Of a DNA stretch of 64,000 nt, positions 155-15,906 are shown one piece after another. Numbering within the stretch: position 1 is the first letter of the stretch; each line of letters starts with the position of its first letter. The position numbers and the translations under genes were made by a program. This stretch comes from Candidatus Omnitrophica bacterium UBA6215 (GTDB taxonomy: Bacteria; Omnitrophota; Gorgyraeia; Pluralincolimonadales; Pluralincolimonadaceae): the NCBI GenBank assembly GCA_002421665.1, contig DISH01000005.1, forward strand, positions 78,092 to 142,091. Reading direction: 5' to 3'. Below the pieces are notes generated by a model. It made no database searches. It had not been told where the DNA came from and saw only the letters and a program-made list of their open reading frames with translations.

Positions 155-183
155 TTGACAAAGCACGGTTAATCGTGTAAACT
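155..183 (+). promoter_or_regulatory. Putative sigma70 promoter (TTGACA-N17-TAAACT) for the LacI-GH2 operon
   Basis: Perfect -35 hexamer TTGACA at 155-160, a 17-nt spacer, then TAAACT at 178-183, about 20 nt upstream of the lacI ATG at 205. Confidence 0.45.
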
Positions 184-204: not shown

Positions 205-1230
205 ATGAAACGTTTCGAAAAGTCCAGTATAACTATAAAAGACATAGCCAAAAAGGCCGGTGTCGCGCACTCTACCGTCTCTCTTGTTATGAACGACCGT
301 GAACACGTGTCGCCCAAGCTGCGCGAAAAGATACTGAAGATAGCCAATGAGATGGGCTATATGCCTAACATGGTAGCCCGCAGCCTTATAAGCAAGAAAT
401 CCTCCACGGTGGGCGTAGTCTTTCCCGAGAACCCGCATTTTTTCACCATAACGTACTTCCTTATGATAATCGAGGGTATACAGAATGCCTGCAAGAAATA
501 TAATAGGGCGCTTATGTTCTTCAGCCTTGACCAGACCAAGGGCGAGTCATATTACCAGATCTCCAGAAAGTGGCTCATCGACCTCATGATAATAATGAAC
601 GTAGACTATACCAGGGACATCTCCAAGGACATCCAGGACTTGAGGGATAACGGCATTTACTTCTCTTTCCTGACTAAGTATCTCGGGAAAGAAAAGGTCA
701 ATTCGGTATGCGTGGATAATTATGAGGGCGTCAGGATGGTGCTTGAGCATCTTGCCTCGCAGGGCCATAAACGAGTAGGTTATATCGCGGGTAATCCTAA
801 TTCGGCCGACGGTCCCGAGAGGACCCAGGCATACAAGGCCTTATATAAGAAGATGGGTTTAGACCAGGACGAGGAACTCATTGTCCAGGGTGATTTTACC
901 TTTGAGAGCGGAGAGAGGGAAGCCCCTAAGCTCCTGGACCTCAAGAAGCCCCCTACCGCGATATTCGCCGCTAGCGACTATATGGCGATAGGCGCTATGA
1001 GGGTGATCAAGGAACGCGGACTTTCCATACCGGGAGATATCGCAGTTATGGGTTTCGACAACACCCTGGAAGCTGCTTACGTTGAGCCTGCCCTTACCAC
1101 CATAAGGCAGCCGCTGCAGGAGATGGGAGAGAAAGCCGTAGACCTGGCTATACGTTCCATGAATGACGAGAGTTTTGAACCGCAGTCACTTGCCATTAAA
1201 CCGGAGCTCATAAAGAGACAATCATGCTGA
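205..1230 (+). CDS. LacI-family transcriptional regulator
   Basis: N-terminal HTH IKDIAKKAGVAHSTVSLVMN followed by a periplasmic-binding-protein-like sugar-binding fold. The stop overlaps the start of the downstream GH2 gene. Confidence 0.9.
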   Translation: MKRFEKSSITIKDIAKKAGVAHSTVSLVMNDREHVSPKLREKILKIANEMGYMPNMVARSLISKKSSTVGVVFPENPHFFTITYFLMIIEGIQNACKKYNRALMFFSLDQTKGESYYQISRKWLIDLMIIMNVDYTRDISKDIQDLRDNGIYFSFLTKYLGKEKVNSVCVDNYEGVRMVLEHLASQGHKRVGYIAGNPNSADGPERTQAYKALYKKMGLDQDEELIVQGDFTFESGEREAPKLLDLKKPPTAIFAASDYMAIGAMRVIKERGLSIPGDIAVMGFDNTLEAAYVEPALTTIRQPLQEMGEKAVDLAIRSMNDESFEPQSLAIKPELIKRQSC

Positions 1231-4200
1231 AAAAAATCTTTAGCCAAGCGGTGTATCATGTCCTTTTAGCCCTTATTTTATCTTCCGTGCCGGCATTCGC
1301 AGCGGCCCAGCCCGAGGCCGAAGAAAAGACGCAACCGCCCACTTTTGAGATAAAACAGATAGACGAGGTCTTTGTCCCCTTCCAGAACGGCATACCATAT
1401 CCTTCATGGGAAAGGCAGGAGCGTGAATATATAGACCTGGACGGGCAATGGAGATCGCAGCGCCAGGCAGTAGACCATAAACTTACCCTTTCCGAGAGGA
1501 CCTCGGAGGGTATAACCAGGGTGGAACAGGAGGGCGCGGGAAGGCAGAAACCGGATTATGACGATAAGGCATGGAATGACAAAACCATCCCCGGGGTGGA
1601 GAATCCCGCTCCCGATAGATATATGGACGGCGTCTGGTACAGGCGTCATTTCGAAGTGCCTGCGGATGCCGCGGGCAAATACGTCAAGCTTATGTTCGAA
1701 GCCGCCAACTATTTTACCGACGTGTGGGTCAACGGGAAATGGGTAGGCTGCCACGAAGGCGGGTATACGCCGTTCGCTTTCGACGTAAGCAAATACCTGA
1801 ATTACGGCAAGGATAACGTTATCGCGGTAAGGGTAGATAACATCCCCTGGATACCTCACGGCGACAGTTCATCGGAGGCGCAGAGGACCAACGGGCATAA
1901 CATAATCCCGTATGCGACTTGCGACTGGTGGAATTACGGCGGCATAACCAGGGATGTCTATCTTGAGATCTCCCCCGCAGTCTCGGTCGTCCGCGCCGAC
2001 ATAAAGGCAAAGCCGGCCGGCGAGAAGGATTCAGAGGTCAACGTAAACGTTACCGTCTATAACAACGGCGATTCGGAAATAACCGTCCCGGTCTCTATCA
2101 GGGTCCTCGGCACCAACATGAGGCAGAAGGACATAGAGACCGTTAATGCCAAAAAATTATCATCGAACAGGACAATGTCGGTAAAAGGCGATACTTCCAG
2201 GGAGATAACGCTCAAGCCCGGCGAGGCACGGGCGGCAAGTTTTTCGCTTACTTCCGGTGCGCTGAAGTTCTGGTCGCCTGAATCCCCGGAGCTCTATGTC
2301 CTGCAGGTTACGTTAGGCGATAAAAAGAGGAAACTGGATGATTTCTATACGCAGTTTGGGATCAGACAGGTCCAGGTTGACAAGGCGAGTTCAAAGATAC
2401 TCCTTAACGGGAAAGAGATATTCCTGCGCGGTATCGCCAGGCATGAGGCTTTCTACGGAGAGCCCGGCCCTCCGGATTTCGGCCCTTTAAGGGTGGCCGG
2501 GGATTTCGGGTTTGTTAAGGAAGCGAACGCGAATTTTGTCAGGACCGCCCATTACCCTAACCAGCAGCAGACGTATGTGATAGCTGACAGGATGGGATTG
2601 CTTATATGGGAAGAGATCCCGGTCTTCTGGTTCGGAGGACCCGAATTCATGATGCAGAAGAACGTGCGCGGTATCGCCAGGCAGATGTGGCTTGAGATGA
2701 TATACCGTGACTACAACAGGCCGTCCATAATAATACTGGGTACATGCAACGAATGCAGCTGGCAGAAAGAGAGGGCCGACTTCATAAAGGACCTCAAGGA
2801 CAACGCCTCGAAGGTCGACGGCACCCGCCTCGTTGCCCAGTCTGCTTCGGGCAGTGATCCTACGGACGCGACCCAAAAGGAATGCGACGTGATCGGTTTC
2901 ACCACTTATTATGGGATATTCTACGGCAGCTCTTATTATACGGACACGAAAGAGGCCCTCGAAAAGACGCATAAGGCCTTTCCCGGTAAACCTATCGTAT
3001 CCACCGAATACGGCATATGGTCGGCCTATGGGGATGTCCCGCAGGAGAGGATGCAGGTCGATGTCGCGAAAGACACTTTCGCGGCGTTCGCCGAACTTCC
3101 TTTTGTGGCCGGCTCCGCCTGGTGGACCCTTGCCGATTGGCATACTATGATAACCGAGCCCCAGCACATGGGACTCTTGACCATCGACAGGAAGTCGCAA
3201 AAGCCCGTTTATTTCCAGATCCAGAAGCAGCATGCCACCCTTTTGGGCGACCTCTCGGTGAACCTGAAGGAGCCGAAGGATGACGATACCGTAAAAGGCA
3301 AGATACGTATATCTGCGGAAATAAAAGGCAAAGAGAAGCCGCAATTTATAGATCTTATAGTCGAAGGCAAGGAGCTCGGCAGGCTTTCTCAGAAGAAAGA
3401 TATCTCCCAGATGGATTTAGATACATCCAAGCTGCCTGACGGTCCGAATACGCTTATAGTGCGCGCAAAGAGCAAGCAGGGATATTACGTCTCGGATTTT
3501 GTCAGGATAAATGTTGACAATAACGATGAACCTCCGGTCCTGGATATAACCGTTAAGGACGGCGACCTTGTTATGGGGCGTGTAGCGCTTAGCGCGATAG
3601 CTTCAGACGACAGGGATACCCCGAAGGTCACTTACTCTATAGACGGGTCGGAACCCAAGAGAATGTCCAACCCCTCTGAGAATTCTTACCAGGCGGAATG
3701 GGACGCATCCGGGCTCGCTGACGGGTCGATGCATGAATTGACCTTTACCGCCGCGGACTCGTCCGGGCAGACTGTCGAGAAGAAAGTTACCGTTAAGATC
3801 GATAACAAGCCCGGAAGGTATGTTGAGCTGCCCTTCGACCACGACTGGATATCAAACAACGGGAAATATACGGACGGGACGGGATGGGATTTCGCGGCTG
3901 AAGACCTGCCTGCTTCGAATTCGGAATTTATCTTCAACGGCGCTGATAAGGTAAAATTCAAGTTCGGCGACAAGGCCGACGGCGCGTTGAACAATGTTGA
4001 ATGCGCGAAGCAGAAGATATCTTTCTCGCCCGGATATTACAGCAAGGTCTATATACTCGGGTCGATGCATGACGGCGGCGCCAGGTGTCCGTTCCTGCTC
4101 AATTATACCGACGGGACCCAAGAGAAAGTCCTTGCCGGATTCTCTGACTGGTGGGGCGGAAACCCGGTTTTCGGCGAGGCCGTTGCGATAAAGACCACCC

Positions 4201-5813
4201 ACCATCATGAGGCCAGCGGCGAAAGGAAACCGGGCTCAGGGATATACATGCAGACGATCGAGCCTGACAGCAAGAAAGTCCTGTCTTCAATAATACTGCC
4301 TGCCGAGCCGAAATTGCACGTATTTGCCATGACGCTTGAAGGGGAAGAGTGCAATGACGCTGTACCGGAGCCTTCCATACTTGAGCCCCGGGCGAACGCG
4401 TCGGTCGGGGATATCGTCAGGATAGTTGCCGAAGATACGGAGAGCGATATATCAAAGATGGAATATTCGGTAGATTCCGGCGAATGGCTGCCTATGAAGG
4501 CTGAAGCCGAAGGAAAGTATACCGCGGAATGGGACACGACAAAAACCGGCCGCATAGAACACTCGATAAAGATCAAGGCTACGGATAAGATAGGCCAGAT
4601 AAGCGTAAAAGGCATAGATGTAAGGGTCATAAACCGCGTTACCATAATATTCCCGTTCGAGGGTGCCAGTATCTATAAGACCGCGAACATAATGGTAGAG
4701 CCGAGAGCCAACAGGGAAGCGGAGAAGATCGAATTTTCGGTGGATAACGGGGTTTTTGTCGCCATGCCCCTTTCAGGGATGGGTCTTTATACAGCGGAAT
4801 GGGATACGCAAGGATATAAACCGGGTTCAAACCATTTGCTCGTGGTCAGGGAGTATGAAAAAGGCGGCGCCGTTACGATAGATACCGTAAAGGTAAGCAC
4901 GGATTCCATAAACGTCCTGATAGCAGAGCCGATAAAGGGCCATTCCATAAAAGTGGATAAGAATATCCGGGACTGGGTAGGGGTGCCTTCGGAACAGGAG
5001 AACACGGCCACGGTAAATAACGGTGAATTTATCTGGAAAGACGCCAAGGATGACGATACCGGCAACGGTCATTACACCTATCCCACCAATAAAGCGCTCA
5101 AGAAAGGCTGCGACCTTAAGGAGTTCAGGGTCACGTTCGACGATAATAACCTGTATTTATTGATCAAGGCGGACAGGCCCGGAGATTTCTGGGCGCCTTA
5201 CAGGATAATAGGCATAGACACCGACGGGGCCAAAGGGGGCAAAGGCGGGACACAGGTCCTTGCTGAAGGGGATATGGACGATGTAGGTCCGGACAGGGGT
5301 TCATACGGAGAGATAAAGGTTGCCCCGGAACTGGCCTGCGAATATGTCATAGGTATCTATAATTCATATAAGGGCAGGATATGGGAGGCGGGGAAAGACG
5401 GCACGGGTAAATTGATCGCCCGCAAAGAAGCACAGCCGGATGATACGAAGGGTTTCAAGGTGGATGATTGCAACTGGAGCTCTGTTGAGGTCGCCATCCC
5501 CTGGAAATTGCTGGGCGGGGTGCCTTACGGGCAGACATGGAGATTTATTGTAGGGATAGGCCAGCAGGACAACGACACTTTCAGGGAAATAGAGAAGGAT
5601 GCGTCGGAATGGCGCGGCGGCGGCGGCGAATCCAGCGATATCTTCGGGCCTGATCCCGATGTGTATGATATAGCCAGCCCGGACAAGAAAACCCAGGAGT
5701 TCGAGCTACGCGGTTATGATCCGCAAAGCGATCCCGGCGATCCCGAAGGATTTGCCACTATAACAAAATCATATCTGGTTGTGACCTTCAGCGAAGCGCA
5801 GCAGAAACAATAG
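1224..5813 (+). CDS. Secreted multidomain glycoside hydrolase family 2 (beta-galactosidase/beta-glucuronidase-like) with Ig-like repeats and a C-terminal domain shared with the downstream paralogs
   Basis: Signal peptide at the N-terminus. GH2 motifs include NGKWVGCHEGGYTPFAFDVS and the TIM-barrel region HYPNQQQTYVIADRMGLLIWEEIP. Three Ig-like repeats each carry an AEWD motif (YQAEWDASG, YTAEWDTTK, YTAEWDTQG). The last ~295 aa (from GHSIKVDKNIRDW) are homologous to the ORFs at 5829, 6841 and 7831. Confidence 0.9.
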   Translation: MLKKIFSQAVYHVLLALILSSVPAFAAAQPEAEEKTQPPTFEIKQIDEVFVPFQNGIPYPSWERQEREYIDLDGQWRSQRQAVDHKLTLSERTSEGITRVEQEGAGRQKPDYDDKAWNDKTIPGVENPAPDRYMDGVWYRRHFEVPADAAGKYVKLMFEAANYFTDVWVNGKWVGCHEGGYTPFAFDVSKYLNYGKDNVIAVRVDNIPWIPHGDSSSEAQRTNGHNIIPYATCDWWNYGGITRDVYLEISPAVSVVRADIKAKPAGEKDSEVNVNVTVYNNGDSEITVPVSIRVLGTNMRQKDIETVNAKKLSSNRTMSVKGDTSREITLKPGEARAASFSLTSGALKFWSPESPELYVLQVTLGDKKRKLDDFYTQFGIRQVQVDKASSKILLNGKEIFLRGIARHEAFYGEPGPPDFGPLRVAGDFGFVKEANANFVRTAHYPNQQQTYVIADRMGLLIWEEIPVFWFGGPEFMMQKNVRGIARQMWLEMIYRDYNRPSIIILGTCNECSWQKERADFIKDLKDNASKVDGTRLVAQSASGSDPTDATQKECDVIGFTTYYGIFYGSSYYTDTKEALEKTHKAFPGKPIVSTEYGIWSAYGDVPQERMQVDVAKDTFAAFAELPFVAGSAWWTLADWHTMITEPQHMGLLTIDRKSQKPVYFQIQKQHATLLGDLSVNLKEPKDDDTVKGKIRISAEIKGKEKPQFIDLIVEGKELGRLSQKKDISQMDLDTSKLPDGPNTLIVRAKSKQGYYVSDFVRINVDNNDEPPVLDITVKDGDLVMGRVALSAIASDDRDTPKVTYSIDGSEPKRMSNPSENSYQAEWDASGLADGSMHELTFTAADSSGQTVEKKVTVKIDNKPGRYVELPFDHDWISNNGKYTDGTGWDFAAEDLPASNSEFIFNGADKVKFKFGDKADGALNNVECAKQKISFSPGYYSKVYILGSMHDGGARCPFLLNYTDGTQEKVLAGFSDWWGGNPVFGEAVAIKTTHHHEASGERKPGSGIYMQTIEPDSKKVLSSIILPAEPKLHVFAMTLEGEECNDAVPEPSILEPRANASVGDIVRIVAEDTESDISKMEYSVDSGEWLPMKAEAEGKYTAEWDTTKTGRIEHSIKIKATDKIGQISVKGIDVRVINRVTIIFPFEGASIYKTANIMVEPRANREAEKIEFSVDNGVFVAMPLSGMGLYTAEWDTQGYKPGSNHLLVVREYEKGGAVTIDTVKVSTDSINVLIAEPIKGHSIKVDKNIRDWVGVPSEQENTATVNNGEFIWKDAKDDDTGNGHYTYPTNKALKKGCDLKEFRVTFDDNNLYLLIKADRPGDFWAPYRIIGIDTDGAKGGKGGTQVLAEGDMDDVGPDRGSYGEIKVAPELACEYVIGIYNSYKGRIWEAGKDGTGKLIARKEAQPDDTKGFKVDDCNWSSVEVAIPWKLLGGVPYGQTWRFIVGIGQQDNDTFREIEKDASEWRGGGGESSDIFGPDPDVYDIASPDKKTQEFELRGYDPQSDPGDPEGFATITKSYLVVTFSEAQQKQ

Positions 5814-5828
5814 CTTGGAGGCGGTATT

Positions 5829-6812
5829 ATGGCGGTTTTGTTCTTTGTCCTGTTTGTCGTTTTTTCTGGTCCGTGCTTTGCGCAGTCGGGATCAGATGCA
5901 GTAAAAGGCATGTCTCCCGAAGAAGCGGGCAATATAGCACTGTCCGGCCATAAGATAGAGGTTGATAAATCCCTCTTTGACTGGAAGGGCATACTGCCCG
6001 ATGAAGAGAACAGCGCTGCCGTCAACAACGGCGAATATATCTGGAGGGATGCTTCAGGGGACGACACCGGCAACGGCAGATATACATATCCTTTGGACAG
6101 GCAATTGAGGAAGGGGGCGGACCTCAAGGAATTCCGTATCACCTTCGATGAAGACAACCTGTATTTTTTCATAAAAACTAACAGGCCCGGAGATTGGTGG
6201 GTCCCGTACAGGATAGTCGGCATCGATACAGACGGAGCTTCCGGAGGCAAGGGCGGTACGGAAGTCCTGGCCCAGGGAGACATGGATGATTACAGCTTTG
6301 ATTCTGGAACGTTCGCCGAACTCAAAGTTGCCCCGGAACTGGCCTGCGAATACGTAGTGGCCGTATCTTCCACCTACAAGGGCAGGATATGGGATGCCTC
6401 GCAGGCAGGCGCATGCAAGCTTGTCGCCCTCAGGGACGACAGCCCTGACGATACACCAGGCTTCAGGATAGCGGATATGAATTGGAATACGCTGGAAGTG
6501 GCCATCCCGTGGTCGTTGATAGGCGGACGGCCCGAGAATAAGGCATATAGGTTCATAGTGGCAGTGGGCCAGCAGGATTATGATGTAGCCAGGGAGATAG
6601 AGGAAGTCGCTAACGAATGGCACGGAGGAGGTGGTGAGTCGAGCGAGGCCAATGGTGTCGACCCGGATGTCTTTGACCTGGCGGGCGCCGATAAGGCTAC
6701 CCAGGAGAGGGAACTTGGGAGCTTTAAGATGAGTGCGTCTCCGGGCGATACGCAAGGGTTCGCTACGATTGACAGATCATACCTTACGGTGAACTTCGGT
6801 CCAAAACAGTAG
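5829..6812 (+). CDS. Secreted protein, paralog A of the GH2 C-terminal domain family (uncharacterised; possible glycan-binding domain)
   Basis: Signal peptide MAVLFFVLFVVFSGPCFAQS. Conserved blocks NNGEYIWRDASGDDTGNGRYTYP, DLKEFRITFDEDNLYF, IVGIDTDGASGGKGGTEVLAQGDMDD and EWHGGGGESS are shared with the GH2 C-terminus and the two downstream ORFs. An SD sequence lies upstream. Confidence 0.85.
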   Translation: MAVLFFVLFVVFSGPCFAQSGSDAVKGMSPEEAGNIALSGHKIEVDKSLFDWKGILPDEENSAAVNNGEYIWRDASGDDTGNGRYTYPLDRQLRKGADLKEFRITFDEDNLYFFIKTNRPGDWWVPYRIVGIDTDGASGGKGGTEVLAQGDMDDYSFDSGTFAELKVAPELACEYVVAVSSTYKGRIWDASQAGACKLVALRDDSPDDTPGFRIADMNWNTLEVAIPWSLIGGRPENKAYRFIVAVGQQDYDVAREIEEVANEWHGGGGESSEANGVDPDVFDLAGADKATQERELGSFKMSASPGDTQGFATIDRSYLTVNFGPKQ

Positions 6813-6840
6813 CTTAATAATAAAAGAGGAGGTGGGTTAG

Positions 6841-7770
6841 ATGGGAAGAGTGTTGACAGTGCTGGTAGCTGTATTGGCGTTGTCATCGGTATGCTTCGCG
6901 GATGATGCCGTTAACGGCCATAAGATAGCCGTTGACGATAAGTCCGTACGCGACTGGAAGGGTACGGCGCCGGAACAGGAGAATACGTTCGTTGTAAGCG
7001 AAGGTGAGTACATCTGGAAGGATGCTTCCGGGGACGACACCGGCAACGGCAAGTATGTTTATCCGGAGAACAAGGCGCTCAAGAAGGGTGCCGATTTGAA
7101 AGAGTTCAGGGTAACTTTCGACAACGATAACCTGTATATGCTGTTCAAGACAGACAGGCCCGGAGATTGGTGGGTCCCGTACAGGATAGTCGGCATCGAT
7201 ACAGACGGAGCTTCCGGAGGCAAGGGCGGTACGGAAGTCCTGGCCCAGGGAGACATGGATGATTACAGCTTTGATTCTGGAACGTTCGCCGAACTCAAAG
7301 TTGCCCCGGAACTGGCCTGCGAATACGTAGTGGCCGTATCTTCCACCTACAAGGGCAGGATATGGGATGCCAAGGGTAAGTTGATTGCCCGCAAAGAAGC
7401 CCAACCGGACGATACTCCCGGTTTTAAGGTCGGTGACTACAACTGGAACGCCGTTGAAGTTGCTATTCCGTGGGAGCTCATCGGAGGTAAACCGGCCGAA
7501 GGCACCGCTTGGAGGCTGGTTGTAGCTACCGGTCAGCAGGATAACGACCTGGCGCGTGAAGTAGAAGAAGAAGTAAGCGAATACCGCGCCGGCGGCGGAG
7601 AGTCGAGCGAGGACAACGGTGTCGACCCGGATGTCTTTGACCTGGCGGGCGCCGACAAGGCTACCCAGGAGAAAGAACTTGCAAGCTATAAGGCTGACGG
7701 TGAGCCTGGCGACGCCAACAGCTTCGCCGTTATAAGTAAGTCGTTCCTGACTGTGAAATTCGGCAAGTAA
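6841..7770 (+). CDS. Secreted protein, paralog B of the same domain family
   Basis: Signal peptide MGRVLTVLVAVLALSSVCFA and the same conserved blocks. Nucleotides 7156-7375 are identical (about 220 bp) to 6181-6400 of paralog A. Confidence 0.85.
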   Translation: MGRVLTVLVAVLALSSVCFADDAVNGHKIAVDDKSVRDWKGTAPEQENTFVVSEGEYIWKDASGDDTGNGKYVYPENKALKKGADLKEFRVTFDNDNLYMLFKTDRPGDWWVPYRIVGIDTDGASGGKGGTEVLAQGDMDDYSFDSGTFAELKVAPELACEYVVAVSSTYKGRIWDAKGKLIARKEAQPDDTPGFKVGDYNWNAVEVAIPWELIGGKPAEGTAWRLVVATGQQDNDLAREVEEEVSEYRAGGGESSEDNGVDPDVFDLAGADKATQEKELASYKADGEPGDANSFAVISKSFLTVKFGK

Positions 7771-7789
7771 TATAGAGATAATTAAACCA

Positions 7790-7819
7790 CAGGAGGGGCC
7801 GTGATCCCGGCTCCTCCTG
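7790..7819 (+). other. GC-rich stem-loop (about 12 bp stem) between paralog B and C, immediately upstream of the paralog C SD
   Basis: CAGGAGGGGCCG ... CCCGGCTCCTCCTG pairs as an inverted repeat. No T-tract follows it. GAGG then lies 8 nt before the ATG at 7831. Confidence 0.4.
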
Positions 7820-7830
7820 AGAGGTATAAA

Positions 7831-8790
7831 ATGATAAAGAGATCGGCATTCTTCGCGTTACTTGTATTGTTTGTCGTGTATTTAGGCCCTGTATTTTCTT
7901 ATATAGGCGTAGGGTCATTATCCGGCCATTCTGTACGGGTAGACGGCTCGGTTGCAGACTGGGTCGGGACCCCTCCAGAAAAATATAATACCGCCATAAT
8001 AAGCAAAGGCGAGTATATATGGAAAGACGCCCTTAATGATGATACCGGTAACGGAAGATATACCTATCCGAAGAATCCCGCTTTCGCGAAAGCTGCCGAC
8101 CTGGAAGAATTCCGGATCACATGGGACTCAAAGAATATGTATTTTCTAATAAGATCGTCGCGTCCCGGCGACTGGTGGTCTCCCGTAAGGCTTATAGCCA
8201 TAGATACGGACGGGATGGGCGGGGGCAGGAGGGGAATGAAGGTCATACAGCAGGGCGACCTCAACTCCCTTGATGCCGATACCGGGACATTCGGGGAGCT
8301 TAGGGTATCTAATTCGCTTGCGGCGGATTATATCATATGTATCGCGGGAACCTATAAAGGCCGCATATGGGACGCGAAAGGCAATCTTGTAGCTAAGGCC
8401 ATAGGCGAAAAAACAGACACCAGGGGATTCAAGATCAAGGATTCCAATATGTGTGCCGTCGAGGTCCAGGTCCCGCTGAAGATACTCGGTAATCCGGCGG
8501 GTAAGACCTGGAGGTTCATAGTGGCAATGGGCACAGAGGACAAGGAACATCTCAGGGAGATACATAAAGAAGCCGATGATTGGTACGGCGGCGGCGGGGA
8601 AGATACTTTCTCCGAAGATGGCGTGGACCCCGATTACTATGATCTGGCGAGCCCCAGCCAGACGACGCAGGAGATAGAGCTATCGAGTTATAAGCCGAAC
8701 GCGCCGGCAGGCGATACGTCGGCTTTCGCGGTCATAGAGAAGTCATATCTTCAGGTCAAATTTTCCCCCTACTTGCAGGTTACTAAATAA
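7831..8790 (+). CDS. Secreted protein, paralog C (more divergent) of the same domain family
   Basis: Start taken at MIKRSAFFALLVLFVVYLGPVFS (signal peptide). The ORF-track start at 7801 reads through the upstream hairpin. Blocks GEYIWKDALNDDTGNGRYTYP, DLEEFRITWDSKNMYF, IDTDGMGGGRRGMKVIQQGDLN and DWYGGGGED are conserved. Confidence 0.8.
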   Translation: MIKRSAFFALLVLFVVYLGPVFSYIGVGSLSGHSVRVDGSVADWVGTPPEKYNTAIISKGEYIWKDALNDDTGNGRYTYPKNPAFAKAADLEEFRITWDSKNMYFLIRSSRPGDWWSPVRLIAIDTDGMGGGRRGMKVIQQGDLNSLDADTGTFGELRVSNSLAADYIICIAGTYKGRIWDAKGNLVAKAIGEKTDTRGFKIKDSNMCAVEVQVPLKILGNPAGKTWRFIVAMGTEDKEHLREIHKEADDWYGGGGEDTFSEDGVDPDYYDLASPSQTTQEIELSSYKPNAPAGDTSAFAVIEKSYLQVKFSPYLQVTK

Positions 8791-8808: not shown

Positions 8809-9822
8809 ATGAAGAAAGTCACTTTTAAAGAGATATCGAAGATCGTAGGGGTTTCCCCTATGCACGTCTCCCGGGCCCTGGCAGGGCATCCTTATGTAAA
8901 GGAAGACCTGAGGAAGAAGATATTCAAGGTCGCTAAGGAGCTTAACTACAGCATCAATCCTTTCGGCAGGGGCCTGTCCAAGAATATACAGATGAAGGCG
9001 CGGATGATATGCCTTCTTACAAACTATGATAATTTTTTTAGGACCGAATATTTCATAGATCTCATAGATTCCATAAGCGAGAATTGCAGGTCGAAAGACT
9101 GTGACGCCATAATAGTCAGCCTTACCGACGATAAACGCGATAACGTCAACAGGCTCAAGAACCTGGTCAATTATTACAAGGCGGGTATAATAGAAGGGTT
9201 CGTATTTATAGCTCCCGACCTCGGTTCGCAGGAGGGGCTTTTCCTTTGCTCGGAAAAGGTCAACTTTGTTTGTGTCGGCAGCAGGATAGACCCCGAGACA
9301 AAATACGTGGATATAGATAATTTCAAGGCGGGCTTTGATGTCGGCGAATACCTCGCGGGGCTCGGCCACAGGAGATTTGCATTCATCAAAGGGGCGGAGA
9401 ACCGTTTCGATACCCGCGAAAGGATGCAGGGGTTCTCAACTGCCTTGGGCATGAAGGGCCTGGAGATAGACCCCGACCTTATAGTAAAAGGCGATTACAA
9501 GATAGCCGGCGGGAAGAAGGCGACCGCATCGGTTTTTTCGCGCAACAAGAAACCCGACGCGATATTCTATGCGAACGACCTGATGGCTTACGGGGGGATG
9601 GAGTTTTTTAAGGAGAAGAAGATCGATGTGCCCGGGGACGTGTCTATAGTAGGTTTTGACGACCTTGCGGCTTCGGCAAATTGCCGCCCGCCGCTTACCA
9701 CGGTAAGACAGCCTTACGCGGAGATGGGTGAGGCGGTAATGGAAGCCGTCTTTGACCGTAATTTTACTGCAATGAAGATACCGGGTGAACTTATAATAAG
9801 AAAAAGCTGCGGGAGGTTATAA
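8809..9822 (+). CDS. LacI-family transcriptional regulator (second copy)
   Basis: HTH FKEISKIVGVSPMHVSRALAG at the N-terminus, followed by a PBP-like domain. Confidence 0.85.
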   Translation: MKKVTFKEISKIVGVSPMHVSRALAGHPYVKEDLRKKIFKVAKELNYSINPFGRGLSKNIQMKARMICLLTNYDNFFRTEYFIDLIDSISENCRSKDCDAIIVSLTDDKRDNVNRLKNLVNYYKAGIIEGFVFIAPDLGSQEGLFLCSEKVNFVCVGSRIDPETKYVDIDNFKAGFDVGEYLAGLGHRRFAFIKGAENRFDTRERMQGFSTALGMKGLEIDPDLIVKGDYKIAGGKKATASVFSRNKKPDAIFYANDLMAYGGMEFFKEKKIDVPGDVSIVGFDDLAASANCRPPLTTVRQPYAEMGEAVMEAVFDRNFTAMKIPGELIIRKSCGRL

Positions 9823-9830
9823 AGGAGACC

Positions 9831-12800
9831 ATGATGAGCACCAGCGCGGTATACAGGATAGGCGATGACAACGAATTCATTATAGAGAACTATAACCATT
9901 CCAAAGCGTTTTCCAGCTTTCTGCCGGGGATCGCCGGCCTGGACGGAATACCCATGTGGACCTTTTATGTCAACAGGAACCAGGCCGTATGCAGTTTCGG
10001 CATAGAGGGAAAAGACCGCTCTATGATGGAGTTCTTTCCCGCAAACTTCGCCTACCAACTTGTAGGATCGCAGGGTTTCAGGACATTCATCAAGTTATCC
10101 TCGAAAGACGGCTATATTTATTACGAACCTTTCCGTACTTATGAGAAGGAAGAGAAATATATTCCTTCTCAGACTATGGTGATAAGGCCCTATTCCGTGA
10201 CCATAATGGAAGAGAACCGCAAGCTTGGCCTGGACGTGAAGATAGAATATTGTAACCTGTCAGGCAGGCCTTTCCCCGGACTCATGAGAAAGGTTGAGGT
10301 CAGGAATACTTCACGCAAACAGGTTTCGTTCGAGATCATAGACGGTATGCCGCAGGTAGTCCCGTTCGGAATGGATGATTTCAGCCTCAAGAAGATGAAA
10401 TACCTGGTGAAATCTTTTAGTTTTGTGGAGAACCTGGAAAAGAAGATCCCTTATTTCCATATCAAGACGACGCATGAGGACGGCCCCGAAGTGGCGATGG
10501 TCAAGAAGGGGCATTTTTACGCCTGTTTCAGGACAAAAGGCGCTAAGATGGAACTACTCAGGCCTATGGTTGACGTATCGCAGGTATTCGGGGCAAGGAA
10601 AGATTTCATATATCCGTCCGAGTTCAACGTTAAGAAAAAGTTCTCCTATGACGCCAAGAATGAATTAAAGAGCGGGGAATTCGCCTGCGCGATGTGCTAC
10701 CAGGACGTGAAGCTGGGCCCTTCAGGGTCACTGGTCCTTACGTCGGTTTTTGGCACCCTGGATTCGCTGGATGGGACATCGAAAGTGGCGCGCACGGTTA
10801 CGGCCGACCTCATGGAAAAGCAGCTTACGAAGAACAGGGAGCTCATCGAATCCATAATGGCCAGGTCGCTTGTCATAAGCGAAGACCGCAGGTTCGACAG
10901 GTATTCCCTGCAAAATTACCTCGATAATGTCCTCAGGGGCGGGCTTCCCATAACGGTGACGAAGGACAGGAGCAAGGTTTTTTACGTATATTCAAGGAAG
11001 CACGGGGATCTTGAGCGCGATTACAACCAGTTCTATACCTCCCCGACCGAATATTCGCAGGGAGATTCCAATTACAGGGACGTAAACCAGAACAGGCGCA
11101 ACGACCTTTTCTTCAATCCCGATGTCGGGATGACGAATATAGTAAATTACGTGAACCTTATACAGCTTGACGGGTTCAACCCGCACGGTGTAGGAGGAAT
11201 TACGTTCAGGTATAAAGGGGACGAGGAAACGCTCAGGTCGCTTTTTGGCCCGAGCGCGGCAGGTGCGAAGGCTTTCTTCGGCAAGCCATTCGCCCCGGGA
11301 GACATCTTCAAATTGCTTGACGCCGGGAAGGTAAAAACCGGTTTATCCAAGGAAGAACTTCTCTTGAGGATACTTGAAAGGTCCGAGGCGGTACAGAATT
11401 CCAAGCACATCGAAGGTTACTGGACCGACCATACTTTTTATAACATAGACCTCATAGAAAGTTTCATCTCGATATTTCCCGACAGGAAGAAGGAGCTCTT
11501 TTTCGATAACACGGGGTTCACCTTCCATGACAGTATGTACGTGGTGATGCCGAGGGAGGACAAGTATATACTTTGGGACGGAAAACCCATGCAGGCGGGA
11601 AGCGTCAGGCTTGACGAAGAAAAGAAACAGATGATAACGGACCGCGCCAGTGACAATACCCTTGTGCGCAAGGAGAACGGCAAGGGTGAGGTCTACAGGA
11701 CCAACCTTATAACGAAACTTTTCATACTCGCGGTCAATAAAATCAATTCCATAGCCCCGGACGGTTGCGGGCTGGAGATGGAGTCGGATAAGCCCAACTG
11801 GTGCGATGCCTTGAACGGGCTTCCCGGAATGTTCGGCTCGTCATCGAACGAGACATTCGAGCTCAAGAGGCTGGTATCCATGGTCTCGGATAACCTCGGC
11901 GCCGCCCAACTCGAAATCCCGGAGGAAGTCGCGGATATTGTTTCCGCGTCAAAAGATATTTTAAACGCCTATCTTTCCGGGGGCCTCGACGATCATGCCG
12001 CCTGGGACAAGCTTACAACCCTTAAAGAGGAATTCAGGGCGAGGACGAAGTTCGGCATAACGGGCCGCATGGTCAGCCTTAGCGCCGAAGATGCTTCGGG
12101 ATACCTTAACCTTGCATCCAAGAGGGTGCAGTCCGCGATAGACAAGAGTTTTAACGGGAATTCCGGGTTGTTTTCCGGGTATTTTATAAATATCCCGGTT
12201 GATTACGAGAAGATAACTTTTACCGATGATAAGGGCAGGGAAGTTCCAAGGACAAACCATAAGGGGCTCCCCTGCATAAAGGTCAAGAAGTTCGAGTCGA
12301 AGGCGCTTCCTCTCTTCCTGGAGGCGCAGGTTCACGCGATGAGGACGGAGAAAGACATATCGCTCAAGGCGCGGCTTCACGGAAATCTCATGAAGAGCGG
12401 GCTGGTGGACAAGAAGCTGAAGATGTTCTTCGTCAACGACTCCATTGCCAATGAGCCGTACGAGATAGGCAGGATCAAGACGTTCAATCCGGGCTGGCTG
12501 GAGAACCAGTCGATATGGCTGCATATGGAATACAAATATATGCTCGAACTCCTAAGGGGAGGCCTTTATAAGGACTTCTTCAGGAACATGAAGAACGTGT
12601 TGGTGCCGTTCCTTCCCGCCGAGGTATACGGCAGGAGTGTATTTGAGAACTCGTCCTTCATTGCCAGCAGCGCACATCCGGATAAGAAGGTCCACGGGCA
12701 GGGGTTCTACGCGCGCCTGTCCGGCTCCACAGCGGAATTCATACATATGTGGCTTATCATGATGACCGGCGGCAGGCCGTTCGGGTTAGACGGCAGCGGC

Positions 12801-13124
12801 AAGCTTATATTCAAGCTTTGTCCCGTGATAGAGGCGAGGATGTTCCTTAAAAAAGACCGCAAGGTGAGCTATTACCTGCCGGACGGGACCTTGAAGACCG
12901 AAACGGCCGGGAAGGGAACGCTGAAATTCATGTTCCTCGGAAGCATTCCCGTTACATATGTCAATGCTTCAGGTAAAGATATATCAGGGGACAACGGCAA
13001 GACGCGCTATGAAGTTACCATGGATGACGCCACCGTCAAGTTTTTTGACGGGGAAGTCCCCGAACCGTATTCAGCCATGATCAGGCAGGGGAAAGCCCGG
13101 GAGATAAAAGTTTACTTTAACTGA
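9831..13124 (+). CDS. Large cytoplasmic protein, putative glycoside hydrolase/phosphorylase of an (alpha/alpha)6-barrel-like family (family unassigned)
   Basis: 1097 aa with no signal peptide. It lies between a LacI regulator and a GH35 gene. The N-terminus (YRIGDDNEFIIENYNHSKAFSSFLPGIAG) loosely resembles GH94/GH65-type phosphorylase N-termini. The C-terminal region ENQSIWLHMEYKYMLELL is reminiscent of six-hairpin glycosidases. The family cannot be assigned by eye. Confidence 0.5.
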   Translation: MMSTSAVYRIGDDNEFIIENYNHSKAFSSFLPGIAGLDGIPMWTFYVNRNQAVCSFGIEGKDRSMMEFFPANFAYQLVGSQGFRTFIKLSSKDGYIYYEPFRTYEKEEKYIPSQTMVIRPYSVTIMEENRKLGLDVKIEYCNLSGRPFPGLMRKVEVRNTSRKQVSFEIIDGMPQVVPFGMDDFSLKKMKYLVKSFSFVENLEKKIPYFHIKTTHEDGPEVAMVKKGHFYACFRTKGAKMELLRPMVDVSQVFGARKDFIYPSEFNVKKKFSYDAKNELKSGEFACAMCYQDVKLGPSGSLVLTSVFGTLDSLDGTSKVARTVTADLMEKQLTKNRELIESIMARSLVISEDRRFDRYSLQNYLDNVLRGGLPITVTKDRSKVFYVYSRKHGDLERDYNQFYTSPTEYSQGDSNYRDVNQNRRNDLFFNPDVGMTNIVNYVNLIQLDGFNPHGVGGITFRYKGDEETLRSLFGPSAAGAKAFFGKPFAPGDIFKLLDAGKVKTGLSKEELLLRILERSEAVQNSKHIEGYWTDHTFYNIDLIESFISIFPDRKKELFFDNTGFTFHDSMYVVMPREDKYILWDGKPMQAGSVRLDEEKKQMITDRASDNTLVRKENGKGEVYRTNLITKLFILAVNKINSIAPDGCGLEMESDKPNWCDALNGLPGMFGSSSNETFELKRLVSMVSDNLGAAQLEIPEEVADIVSASKDILNAYLSGGLDDHAAWDKLTTLKEEFRARTKFGITGRMVSLSAEDASGYLNLASKRVQSAIDKSFNGNSGLFSGYFINIPVDYEKITFTDDKGREVPRTNHKGLPCIKVKKFESKALPLFLEAQVHAMRTEKDISLKARLHGNLMKSGLVDKKLKMFFVNDSIANEPYEIGRIKTFNPGWLENQSIWLHMEYKYMLELLRGGLYKDFFRNMKNVLVPFLPAEVYGRSVFENSSFIASSAHPDKKVHGQGFYARLSGSTAEFIHMWLIMMTGGRPFGLDGSGKLIFKLCPVIEARMFLKKDRKVSYYLPDGTLKTETAGKGTLKFMFLGSIPVTYVNASGKDISGDNGKTRYEVTMDDATVKFFDGEVPEPYSAMIRQGKAREIKVYFN

Positions 13125-13137
13125 TGCGGAGGATGTC

Positions 13138-15906
13138 GTGGACAAGAAGGTGATCTCTTTCGACAGCAAGAGCATGATGGTAAACGGCAGGCGTGTCATG
13201 CTCTACGGCGGGGAGTTCCATTATTTCCGCGTTCCGAACGAATTATGGGAAGACAGGCTGCAGAAGATGCGGTCTGCCGGACTGAACCTGGTCGTTACGT
13301 ATATACCGTGGAATTTCCACGAGACGGAAGAAGGCAAGTTCCTGTGGGACGGCGACAGGGACCTCGATAAGTTCATTACCCTTACCCAAAAGTACGGTTT
13401 TTACCTGATAATTAAACCGGGCCCGTATATTTGCGCGGAATGGGATTTCGGCGGTTTCCCGGATTGGCTGCTTGGCAAGGAGATAAACCTGCGCGAAGAC
13501 GACCCGGTATATATGAAGTTGATCGCGAGGTATTACAAGGAGATAGCGGGTATAATCAGGCCGCATCTTATCACGAGGGGAGGCAACATAGTACTCTTCC
13601 AGGTCGAGAACGAGTATGACCACCTGATAGCCTATACCGGTATAGAGAGATACAGGAAGGGAGCGCTTAAATACCACCTTAAGCTCCTTGAAATGGCCAG
13701 GAAAGAAGGCATAGATGTTCCCGCCTTTACGGTCGAAGGCAGCTTCCTCAGGAAAAGCGAGATAATCGACGCCCGCACCTATTATCCCAACATACCCTGG
13801 ATATGGCTCTGGGAGTTCAACGATTTTGACAAGGCGATAAGGGACTCGGTCGCGGCCCAGCCCTCAAAGCCCCTCATGATCATGGAGCTCGAGACGGGAT
13901 GGTTCGCCCAGTTCGGAAAGCCGCTCTACCAGATAGAGCCGGAGGTTACCAGGGCGATACTCAGGACCGTCATTGCCGAAGGAGCTTCCGTGATGAACCA
14001 TTTCATGTTCATAGGAGGCACGACTTTCCCGTACTGGAACTGCAAAGGCGATTACGGCGGGATAGGGACCTGTACCACATACGACTTCGGCCACTCCCCG
14101 GTAAGGGAATGGGGAGAGGTATCGCCCACAAAGTACCATATGGCCCGCAATACCGCCCAATTCCTCGACTCATTCGAGGATGAACTGTTCTCCTCCGAGA
14201 AAAAAGAAGGTGCCGCTAAATTCGCCAAGGGAGGCGAGACCGTAGCGCTTATCGACGGCAGGAATGCTGTCCCGAACCCGGATTTCTCCGGGACATTCGA
14301 GAATGTTGAGGTTCTTGAAAGATACGGGAAGAAGGGCGGGTTTGTCATGGCCCGCAACCTTACCGAGGATACGCATAAAGTGCGTATATCGTATTTCTCC
14401 CCGCTGGAAGGCAGGCAGATGGTCATGCCGGCGGCCCAGGACCTTAAACTCGCGTCGAGGTCGTCGTTCCTCTTTCCGGTGGATATAACGGCAGGAAAGA
14501 AGGGCGTTGTCATAAGGTATTCCACATGCGAGCTTGTGCTAAGGAAGAAGATAGCCAACGAAAATTTCATCTTCCTGTCGGGCAGGCCGGAAGTACCAGC
14601 GGAGACATTGATAAAATGCCCATCGAAGCCCTTGACACTGGAAGGGAAATTTGGCGTAGAAAAAGTGAAGGGCGGATATCTTGTGACGAATGAGAACGAC
14701 GGCACGGGCATATTGAAGGCAGGCGGGGTCTTCTTCGTTTTTCTCGACGACAAGACCGCGTCAAAGGTCTGGGACCGGCATGATACCGTGGTGATAAGTG
14801 ATTACTATTATATAGAGGATATTTTTAATAACGGCAAGAGCATTGATATTTGCGCTCAGGTGAAGAACGGTTGCAACCAGCGCACCAGGATATTCACGGG
14901 CCTTAGGCCGCGGTCGGTCACGATAAACGGCGAGAAAACCGCGTTCAAGTATGACAGGCGGACGAAGTCCGCCAGGTTTGAATTCGATTGCGCCGTAGAG
15001 GAACTGCCCAAGGTAACCTGGCTTGACGCGCCGCGGTTCGCTTCGGACGTCGAGGAGAAGGGGCCGGATTATGAAGATTCCTCGTGGAAAAAAATAAAAC
15101 TGCCGAATTCCCTCGAGAAGGCGGGCCTGCTGGAACACGGTTTCCTGTGGTACAGGAAGAAGTTTGAGCTAAAGGGGAAGCCTTCCAAGTGCGTACTCAA
15201 AATAGAGACCGGCGAAATGGACCGTTTCTATGTTTATGTCAACGGCCGGTTCGTCTGGAGAGGCATAGAGAACAAGGACCTGGATATAACGCGATTCGTC
15301 AGGAAGGGCGATAACCTGCTTGCCGTCAGGTATGAGAATGCCTACCATACTAAGGCGCACCCGCACGAAGGGGCGATCAAAAAATTCAGCGGCATACTAA
15401 ATCCGGTAAGGGTATCCGGAAAGATATCCGGAAGGGAGTTTAACATTATCCTGGATAACCTGCTTGTCCGCGAAAAGGCGGGAGGCCTGCTAAAAGGTTA
15501 TCACGAGCCTGACTGCATTGAGGTCTCGTGGAGGAGGACGCCTCCGGCCAGGAAGTATGTTATTCCCGAGGAGATGGGGGAGTTGGTGTGGTACAGGAGG
15601 AAATTTCGTTTCCTCACGCGAAAAGGCGGCGTATGCGCGCTTAAACTGACCATAGACCATGCTTTCGAAAGGTGCATAATCTACCTTAACGGCAAGGCCC
15701 TCGGTAAATATGAGTCAGTGGGCCCGCAAAACGATTTTTATATTCCGGAGACATTCCTTCGCTCGGAAAATACCCTGGCAATACTGCTTGAAGGTCCGGG
15801 GGTCCATCCCGTAAAGGAGTTTGGATTCGTGCCGCCGGTTCTCAAGGATCCCAGGATAGGATTTTATTACAGCGCCAAAAAGATACTGGCAAGGATATCC
15901 CGGTAA
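13138..15906 (+). CDS. Glycoside hydrolase family 35 beta-galactosidase
   Basis: Hallmark GH35 N-terminus FHYFRVPNELWEDRLQKMRSAGLNLVVTYIPWNFHE ... GPYICAEWDFGGFPDWLL and the catalytic-region motif QVENEY. Confidence 0.9.
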   Translation: MDKKVISFDSKSMMVNGRRVMLYGGEFHYFRVPNELWEDRLQKMRSAGLNLVVTYIPWNFHETEEGKFLWDGDRDLDKFITLTQKYGFYLIIKPGPYICAEWDFGGFPDWLLGKEINLREDDPVYMKLIARYYKEIAGIIRPHLITRGGNIVLFQVENEYDHLIAYTGIERYRKGALKYHLKLLEMARKEGIDVPAFTVEGSFLRKSEIIDARTYYPNIPWIWLWEFNDFDKAIRDSVAAQPSKPLMIMELETGWFAQFGKPLYQIEPEVTRAILRTVIAEGASVMNHFMFIGGTTFPYWNCKGDYGGIGTCTTYDFGHSPVREWGEVSPTKYHMARNTAQFLDSFEDELFSSEKKEGAAKFAKGGETVALIDGRNAVPNPDFSGTFENVEVLERYGKKGGFVMARNLTEDTHKVRISYFSPLEGRQMVMPAAQDLKLASRSSFLFPVDITAGKKGVVIRYSTCELVLRKKIANENFIFLSGRPEVPAETLIKCPSKPLTLEGKFGVEKVKGGYLVTNENDGTGILKAGGVFFVFLDDKTASKVWDRHDTVVISDYYYIEDIFNNGKSIDICAQVKNGCNQRTRIFTGLRPRSVTINGEKTAFKYDRRTKSARFEFDCAVEELPKVTWLDAPRFASDVEEKGPDYEDSSWKKIKLPNSLEKAGLLEHGFLWYRKKFELKGKPSKCVLKIETGEMDRFYVYVNGRFVWRGIENKDLDITRFVRKGDNLLAVRYENAYHTKAHPHEGAIKKFSGILNPVRVSGKISGREFNIILDNLLVREKAGGLLKGYHEPDCIEVSWRRTPPARKYVIPEEMGELVWYRRKFRFLTRKGGVCALKLTIDHAFERCIIYLNGKALGKYESVGPQNDFYIPETFLRSENTLAILLEGPGVHPVKEFGFVPPVLKDPRIGFYYSAKKILARISR

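Follow-up and report, generated by a model that had tools for sequence, protein, structure and literature searches.

The DNA analysed in this work is a 64-kb window from Candidatus Omnitrophica bacterium UBA6215 (contig DISH01000005.1, positions 78,092-142,091, forward strand). The coordinates below are those of this window unless a locus name is given. The first part of the window (~1-16 kb) is a compact gene row that lies entirely on the + strand. It contains the gene of an exported GH2 glycosidase that is followed by three genes of small exported proteins. The GH2 gene (1224-5813, +) encodes a protein of 1529 aa (170 kDa) that was identified from Pfam matches, PDB matches, and domain breakpoints. 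The protein ends with a Glucodextran_C (GDC) domain at residues ~1232-1529 (~4917-5813, +; PF09985, E 6e-20), which the local hidden Markov model (HMM) places at residues 1240-1532 of the open reading frame (ORF) with E 4e-144. The three small proteins are free-standing copies of the same domain. Paralog 1 (5829-6812, +; 327 aa; PF09985, E 5e-20) consists of a signal peptide and a single GDC domain. Paralog 2 (6841-7770, +; PF09985, E 2e-21) consists of 309 aa. Paralog 3 ends at 8790 (+; PF09985, E 1e-23) and consists of 329 aa when it is read from the GTG at 7801 or of 319 aa when it is read from the ATG at 7831.

The C-terminal 298 residues of the GH2 protein and the three downstream proteins are four copies of one module of ~300 aa with 49-70% identity. 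The identity to the GH2 tail over ~300 residues is 57% for paralog 1, 62% for paralog 2, and 49% for paralog 3. Between paralogs 1 and 2 it is 70%. The HMM that was built from the four copies exhibits exactly four matches (E 1e-173 to 1e-177) in the six-frame translation of the 64-kb window, and no further copies of the module were found there in this search. The four-copy repeat is correct and far beyond chance. An earlier note on this DNA had described the same array of one fused and three free-standing copies, which is confirmed by the alignments, the HMM, and the intact ORFs of the GH2 and the three free proteins on the + strand. The array start given in that note (4930) also agrees with the start of the fused copy at nt ~4917. 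The conserved motif blocks that it listed are approximately right but inexact in two of the copies. Paralog 2 carries the variants SEGE...YVYP and EYRAGGGE, and paralog 3 carries the variants LIAIDTDGMGGGRRG, GDLNS, and DWYGGGGED.

Each free protein begins with a hydrophobic signal peptide, and its gene is preceded by a Shine-Dalgarno site, which in paralog 1 is GGAGG located 8 nt 5' of the start. The mature free proteins are acidic (pI 4.4-5.1) with masses of 31.5-33.7 kDa. Sec signal peptides are present on the GH2 as well as on the three GDC proteins. No canonical lipobox, transmembrane anchor, or sorting tail was found in the free proteins. Lipoprotein anchoring was rejected because the signal peptides of paralogs 1 and 2 have Cys residues only outside a lipobox context and those of paralog 3 and the GH2 contain no Cys. 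Judged from these sequence features, the exported proteins may be located in the periplasm, on the surface, or in the medium.

The Pfam search of each copy gave PF09985 (Glucodextran_C) in all four, above the gathering score of 22 bits (72.2 bits for the GH2 tail, 72.4 for paralog 1, 77.0 for paralog 2, and 84.0 for paralog 3). Other Pfam families, including S-layer homology (SLH, PF00395), CBM9 (PF06452), and DOMON, do not match the module even at E<=10. The close homologs bear the NCBI name 'glucodextranase DOMON-like domain-containing protein' and almost all are from metagenome-assembled genomes (MAGs) of Candidatus Omnitrophota. In the sequence searches against PDB, the four-copy profile found nothing and a 69-sequence profile gave one weak match (E 0.62), and a fold search was therefore needed. 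The AlphaFold2 (AF2) model of paralog 2 (predicted local distance difference test, pLDDT, 93.3) is an all-beta sandwich that is nearest to glucodextranase domain C. The fold-match figures for this model are 19.9 for glucodextranase (1ulv), 14.0 for Sas6/CBM74 (7uwu), 11.1 for 4jpq, which is a putative carbohydrate-binding protein, 10.5 for CBM9 (1i82), and at most 9.5 for several haem-type DOMON proteins. Glucodextranase is also the only significant match of the model in Foldseek. The loops DDxGxGxYxYP and EWxxGGG...DPxxxD..TQ align with residues 781-816 and 962-1000 of glucodextranase 1ug9 in the profile-to-PDB alignment, and their hallmark residues are at least 95% conserved across 82 domain copies. 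There is no detectable sequence similarity between the module and CBM74 (Sas6, 7UWU). The module is a Glucodextran_C domain and, according to the model, has an all-beta DOMON/CBM9-like sandwich fold. The tentative guess of a glucodextranase-C module in the earlier note was hence well placed, both by the PF09985 scores and by the fold. The SLH-like anchoring that it offered as well goes back to a historical label and is not supported, given that no SLH match was obtained and that the all-beta model is without the ~55-residue helical repeats.

A DOMON-like domain may also be read as a redox module that binds haem or another cofactor and shuttles electrons, as in cellobiose dehydrogenase or the gamma subunit of ethylbenzene dehydrogenase. 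The residues that are at least 95% conserved in the 82 domains include no Met, Lys, or His. The only widely conserved candidate is His27, which is at least 90% conserved in the 69-protein alignment and is located in the first strand motif. The operon contains no redox enzymes and the best matches of the domain are carbohydrate-related, which makes a redox function very improbable. Membership in the haem-DOMON group was rejected because the domain has no conserved axial ligands (Met/His or Met/Lys pair).

The genomic neighbourhoods of the domain were collected using homolog look-ups and a scan of species-representative genomes, and each locus was annotated with local HMM and phmmer searches. 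The free gene is directly 3' of an orthologous GH2 gene in 28 of the 30 determinable species-representative loci. A GH2 of ~1500 aa with a fused GDC domain is followed by one to three free copies in 21 of the 30 loci. A shorter GH2 of ~1040-1100 aa without GDC is followed by one free copy, or by two in locus L027, in seven loci. Free GDC genes without GH2 nearby are found in two loci. The short GH2 ends at the equivalent of residue ~1040, and the long GH2 continues with two immunoglobulin-like (Ig) domains and GDC. The gap between the short GH2 gene and its free gene ranges from an overlap to 190 nt (13 nt in L005; overlap in L031). The protein P0116 (523 aa) was considered as a third architecture and rejected, as it represents no more than the C-terminal part of a long GH2. 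The surveyed loci carry the labels of Omnitrophota, Elusimicrobiota, Auribacterota, and Verrucomicrobiota.

The coupling is also seen from the GH2 side. All GH2s that are at least 50% identical to the catalytic region in the window carry or precede GDC (10/10), and all of them have the Ig-rich extension (10/10). The remoter GH2s (<=45% identity, ~780 aa, without the extension) neither carry nor precede GDC (0 of about 45). An exhaustive profile search of 1.84 billion representatives gave 651 at E<=1e-3, which is a modest size for the whole family, and the GH2-coupled subfamily forms a tight island of about seven representatives that is followed by a large score gap. The free GDC proteins are strictly coupled in the genome to one GH2 subfamily, with fusion and fission between the two. 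Such pairing of split and fused GH2 and GDC is a fusion/fission ('Rosetta stone') signal of a functional link. The link between the GH2 and the domain that had been proposed for this locus held and is much firmer than the window by itself could show, with free homologs that are linked to glycoside hydrolases. The free gene stands beside a GH2 gene in the 28 loci above but not in a small clade that has no glycosidase neighbour.

The reading that we favour is that the free proteins are exported, non-catalytic, and likely glycan-binding partners dedicated to the GH2, which feed oligosaccharide uptake and cytoplasmic breakdown. We consider the chances for and against this reading to be about equal. 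The free GDC proteins would bind a polymeric glycan outside the cytoplasm in trans, and the fused copy would bind it in cis. Binding in trans would concentrate the substrate or present it to the GH2. The substrate is presumed to be a polymer, and the partners may or may not touch the GH2. The released oligosaccharides would be taken up via the adjacent ABC importer, and their breakdown would be completed in the cytoplasm by the GH161 phosphorylase and GH35. Ca2+ would probably stabilise the GDC proteins. Both glycan binding and Ca2+ dependence are suggested by analogy with the fold relatives and by the conserved acidic and aromatic residues.

A ligand module is preferred over an anchor on the basis of the fold relatives, the enzymes and tailed proteins that carry GDC, a relative beside GH66, and the kinetics of a GH65 enzyme. 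Remoter relatives carry GDC together with sorting tails of the type IX secretion system (T9SS), or as fusions to GH57 or GH13. The remoter free-standing family members are found in three different contexts (L052 4874-5902; L053 8001-9083; L055 2089-2997). One remoter free member is wedged between a sugar ABC transporter and GH66, and another is located after two giant T9SS-tailed proteins and is convergent with GH57. The Glucodextran_C family has been described in the literature as DOMON-like and CBM9-like and is found on GH15, GH57, GH65, GH49, GH13, and GH53 enzymes. The kinetics of the GH65 enzyme suggest that its Glucodextran_C domain aids glucan chain recognition (PMC10074034).

Several findings weigh against the reading of glycan-binding partners. 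Sugar binding has been shown for no Glucodextran_C domain and the family is not a carbohydrate-binding module (CBM) in CAZy (PMC10074034). The resemblance to CBM74 and CBM9 is one of fold only, which is not proof of sugar binding. The fused GH2s keep one to three free copies even though fusion should make a CBM in trans dispensable. The count of 28 in 30 comes from loci that, in both locus samples, were retrieved by patterns from the GH2-coupled subfamily and hence are not random. A close free clade is located in a conserved comEA-comEC-GDC-Mem_trans-pilZ-bamD-lptE-holA row of housekeeping and envelope genes without glycosidase (three loci), and one remoter homolog is located 3' of an Omp85/BamA-like gene. 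The unshown binding, the retained free copies, the glycosidase-free clade, and the Omp85 neighbour keep two other readings live, where the free proteins are either subunits of the GH2 or parts of an envelope scaffold.

As subunits, the free GDC proteins would assemble with the GH2 after export, and a short GH2 plus GDC would be equal to a long GH2. Extra free copies would occupy further positions of a GH2 oligomer, and the function would be protein-protein contact and not glycan binding. The split GH2 beta-galactosidases LacLM and EbgAC are the precedent. The C-terminal domain of GH2 is fused in LacZ, and it is encoded by an adjacent gene of ~300 codons in LacL/LacM and EbgA/EbgC. The loci described here follow the same fusion/fission logic, with a clean breakpoint at one position, partner genes that are adjacent or overlapping (as in L005 and L031), the 10/10 coupling from the GH2 side, and free copies that persist beside fused ones. 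However, LacLM and EbgAC are cytoplasmic and use the GH2 'small chain' domain, whereas the domain here is Glucodextran_C, which matched only PF09985, has its own signal peptides, and occurs as free copies beside the fused form. The partners come with signal peptides of their own, and assembly would be needed once each had been exported separately. The domain is also found elsewhere on the unrelated GH15, GH57, GH13, GH53, and GH65, which is a better fit to a general ligand module. We consider the subunit model possible but unlikely.

Strong purifying selection acts on all four copies of the module. The ratio of nonsynonymous to synonymous substitution rates (dN/dS) against a sister population (dS 0.30-0.52) was calculated for every copy and falls within 0.022-0.045, with 0.045 for paralog 1, 0.024 for paralog 2, and 0.043 for paralog 3. 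In the 82 domains from many genomes, fused and free together, about 50 residues reach at least 95% conservation and only nine positions discriminate the clades, so the fused and free copies keep the same functional core. The tree of the domains was constructed using the neighbour-joining method. The deepest branches of this tree are the single partners that accompany short GH2s. The paralog-3 type, encoded at the end of the array, falls into an old clade separate from the others and is the oldest and the most divergent type. The fused domains of Omnitrophota are sister to the paralog-1/2 type, which suggests that duplication of the first free gene gave rise to the fused tail. The locus L027 retains a short GH2 and two free genes, one per type.

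Paralogs 1 and 2 also exhibit a gene-conversion tract of 218 nt. The copy in paralog 1 (6181-6398, +) is 100% identical to the copy in paralog 2 (7154-7371, +), and this is their longest identical run. The tract was identified from this run, a sliding-window profile, and its flanks, which have only 54-69% identity. The tract is near-identical between paralogs 1 and 2 (4 differences) in several independent assemblies of the sister population, and the tract of the sister population differs from that of the window at 17-19 of the 218 sites. These population-specific sequences indicate that conversion has been renewed independently since the split and that the tract is not an assembly artefact. 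The tract is absent in the more distant genomes compared. The independently renewed tract is a clean natural case of concerted evolution, observed in a tandem array that comes from metagenome data. A further segment is shared by the GH2 tail (5397-5504) and paralog 2 (7366-7473), with ~79% nucleotide identity over the part that encodes KLIARKEAQPDDT. The nucleotide identity between paralog 1 and the GH2 tail over the KLIARKEAQPDDT segment is only ~56-62%. The comparison of these segments suggests an older exchange between the fused copy and a free copy.

The tandem order and the perfectly identical 218-nt tract might be taken as signs that the free copies are decaying remnants or a product of mis-assembly. 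The intact ORFs with Shine-Dalgarno sites, the dN/dS of 0.02-0.05, the conservation of the array across phyla, and the independent assemblies with population-specific tracts speak against this. We regard the chance of such decay or artefact as negligible, and the reading as pseudogenes or artefact is refuted by selection and synteny.

The glycosidase-free clade and the conversion tract bear on the other live reading, in which GDC binds part of the bacterium's own envelope, or other GDCs, the free copies form a surface layer or scaffold, and the GH2 docks to it through its fused copy. The GH2-unlinked clade (L012 10001-10942; L039 1413-2375; L040 5267-6208) is sister to the paralog-3 type in the tree, and its GDC gene has a stop that overlaps with the Mem_trans start. 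The MAG of Kappaea frigidicola contains both a GH2-unlinked copy (L040) and a GH2-linked copy (L030). An envelope scaffold would agree with the position of this clade in the comEC-GDC-Mem_trans-pilZ-bamD-lptE row, with the remoter homolog after the Omp85 gene, with the historical 'SLH-like' label of PF09985, and with the gene conversion that preserves identity between the domain cores of paralogs 1 and 2. However, tandem duplicates often undergo gene conversion without having such a function, and the evidence from envelope-gene neighbourhoods amounts to four loci. The all-beta fold without SLH match and the lack of a lipobox, transmembrane segment, or sorting signal in the free proteins argue against a scaffold. 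The relatives with T9SS tails or transmembrane anchors are already anchored and the domain cannot be the anchor there. A role as scaffold or anchor appears improbable to us. A related reading is that the free GDCs and the GH2 tail co-assemble domain-to-domain into an extracellular scaffold for enzyme display, cohesin/dockerin-like or S-layer-like, in which recurrent gene conversion would preserve the fit between the interacting cores and the GH2-independent member beside the envelope-biogenesis genes would attach it to the cell. This reading is improbable in our view as well. If true, it would be a scaffold of one domain type that is peculiar to Omnitrophota, Elusimicrobiota, and neighbouring phyla.

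The reading of exported glycan-binding partners can be set beside the other genes of the row. The window opens on the 3' part of a permease gene of a sugar ABC transporter (1-113, +; by reading of the sequence). The sister loci L001-L003 have SBP_bac_1 and two BPD_transp_1 genes immediately 5' of the LacI gene, which form the full cassette of a substrate-binding protein and two permeases. The first LacI-family regulator (205-1230, +; Pfam LacI and Peripla_BP_3) overlaps the start of the GH2 gene by 7 nt at its 3' end. The second LacI-family regulator (8809-9822, +; Pfam) follows paralog 3. The next gene (9831-13124, +) encodes a cytoplasmic GH161-family glycoside phosphorylase of 1097 aa (PDB 9qqk/9h8v, E 3e-193), for which no Pfam match and no signal peptide were found, and it keeps the same position in most orthologous loci. 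GH161 is a family of beta-1,3-glucan phosphorylases (PMC6484121). The last of these genes encodes a cytoplasmic GH35 glycosidase (13138-15906, +; Pfam Glyco_hydro_35, E 3e-85) that has no signal peptide at its N-terminus.

A LacI-type operator-like palindrome of 14 bp, TGTTATCGCTAACA, is located at 141-154 (no strand) and abuts the -35 box. It is the sole perfect match in the window. The predicted operator is kept as TGTTAnCGnTAACA in nine orthologous loci, where its 5' flank has diverged. A sigma-70-like promoter (TTGACA, 17 nt, TAAACT) was identified at 155-183 (+) by a consensus scan with 10 of 12 matches. It is the only good promoter for the operon, and its TTGACA box is invariant across the nine orthologous loci. 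A second palindrome at 164-177 was dropped as an operator because it is poorly conserved among the orthologs. From the GH2 stop to the second LacI gene, all terminator-like sites listed are on the - strand and none is on the + strand, and there is hence no evidence for separate transcription units. The LacI control that the earlier note had assumed is plausible from the sequence, with the conserved palindrome at the -35 box and the two LacI genes in its favour. The genes lacI, GH2, gdc1, gdc2, gdc3, lacI, GH161, and GH35 would then form a single co-transcribed operon under a LacI operator, with the sugar ABC importer adjacent to it.

The GH2 protein consists of a signal peptide, the N/Ig/TIM core (~126-669), the Ig-rich extension (~701-1040), two Ig domains (~1041-1230), and Glucodextran_C. 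The N-terminal sugar-binding, Ig-like, and TIM-barrel domains of GH2 are all present, as PF02837, PF00703, and PF02836 each score higher than the family cut-off, and the PDB matches to GH2 structures reach E 5e-54. The catalytic region (2100-3400, +) is nearest to glucuronidase/galacturonidase structures of gut bacteria. The N-x-K motif of GH2 beta-glucuronidases binds the uronate carboxylate. The GH2 of the window has Q-H-M in place of the N-R-K of 6ncy in the HMMER alignment, and glucuronidase specificity was rejected because the N-x-K motif is absent. The specificity for galactosides that had been suggested for this locus is not established either, as the GH2 reaches none of the NCBIfam equivalog cut-offs, its nearest relatives are GH2s of the glucuronidase type, and the operon encodes a GH161-family phosphorylase.

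The residues ~885-1040 of the GH2 (~3876-4343, +), which are blank in Pfam, close the short GH2 form. This domain matches AziU2/Azi28 (7wuw, 8gs1), the azinomycin aziridine-forming proteins, with a 17-sequence profile (E 8e-17), which is unexpected inside a glycosidase. The single-sequence AF2 model of this region had a pLDDT of 35.8 and was discarded. The homolog search with residues 701-1045 gave only three weak matches and missed obvious orthologs. This word-indexed search misses long GH2 orthologs that are present in the same collection, and for long multidomain proteins a missing entry in its results hence does not indicate that they are absent.

The type member of PF09985 is domain C of the Arthrobacter globiformis glucodextranase (GH15; 1ULV/1UG9). 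It has ~18% sequence identity to the module described here, and a sequence search made directly does not reach significance (E 0.62). Domain C is the C-terminal accessory domain of an actinobacterial alpha-glucan enzyme, whereas the module here is located on a GH2 of beta-glycosidase type and, unusually, also on free tandem exported proteins. Sas6 of Ruminococcus bromii (CBM74; 7UWU/7UWW) is a non-catalytic starch-binding protein with CBM26, CBM74, and a dockerin, and is displayed through cohesin-dockerin contacts on a Gram-positive bacterium. In contrast, the GDC proteins have a single domain and lack a docking module. The CBM9 domain of Thermotoga maritima Xyn10A (1I82) is much smaller (189 aa), and no Pfam CBM9 match was obtained here at E<=10. 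The surface glycan-binding proteins of polysaccharide utilisation loci in Bacteroidota are non-catalytic and exported, and are encoded beside glycosidases, an importer, and a sugar-responsive regulator. The likeness to them is an analogy of layout only, as the GDC proteins have no homology to them, no lipoprotein signal, and no SusC/D.

The domain family and its database name are already known. The searched literature contains no description of a stand-alone exported GDC form, of near-obligate pairing of GDC with one GH2 subfamily, of natural split and fused GH2/GDC enzyme pairs, or of tandem amplification of GDC with ongoing concerted evolution. Glycosidases of archaea and bacteria repeatedly carry Glucodextran_C as an accessory domain. 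It is not a recognised CBM, and the loci described here make its role testable. They provide single-domain exported versions of 32 kDa that are tied to one enzyme subfamily, together with natural split and fused forms of the enzyme. To our knowledge, Omnitrophota have no cultured free-living representatives, and the locus adds a defined carbohydrate-acquisition module to this phylum. GH2 enzymes recur beside giant proteins in this phylum, and a recent survey reported that the TonB/Sus architecture is absent from its Omnitrophota genome collection (bioRxiv 10.64898/2026.06.07.730766). The nearest public genome record to the window is L014 (CAZAEH010000019.1), which has 97% protein identity and is labelled 'uncultured Planctomycetia bacterium'. 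This label is probably a taxonomic mis-assignment, as most other close relatives are Candidatus Omnitrophota.

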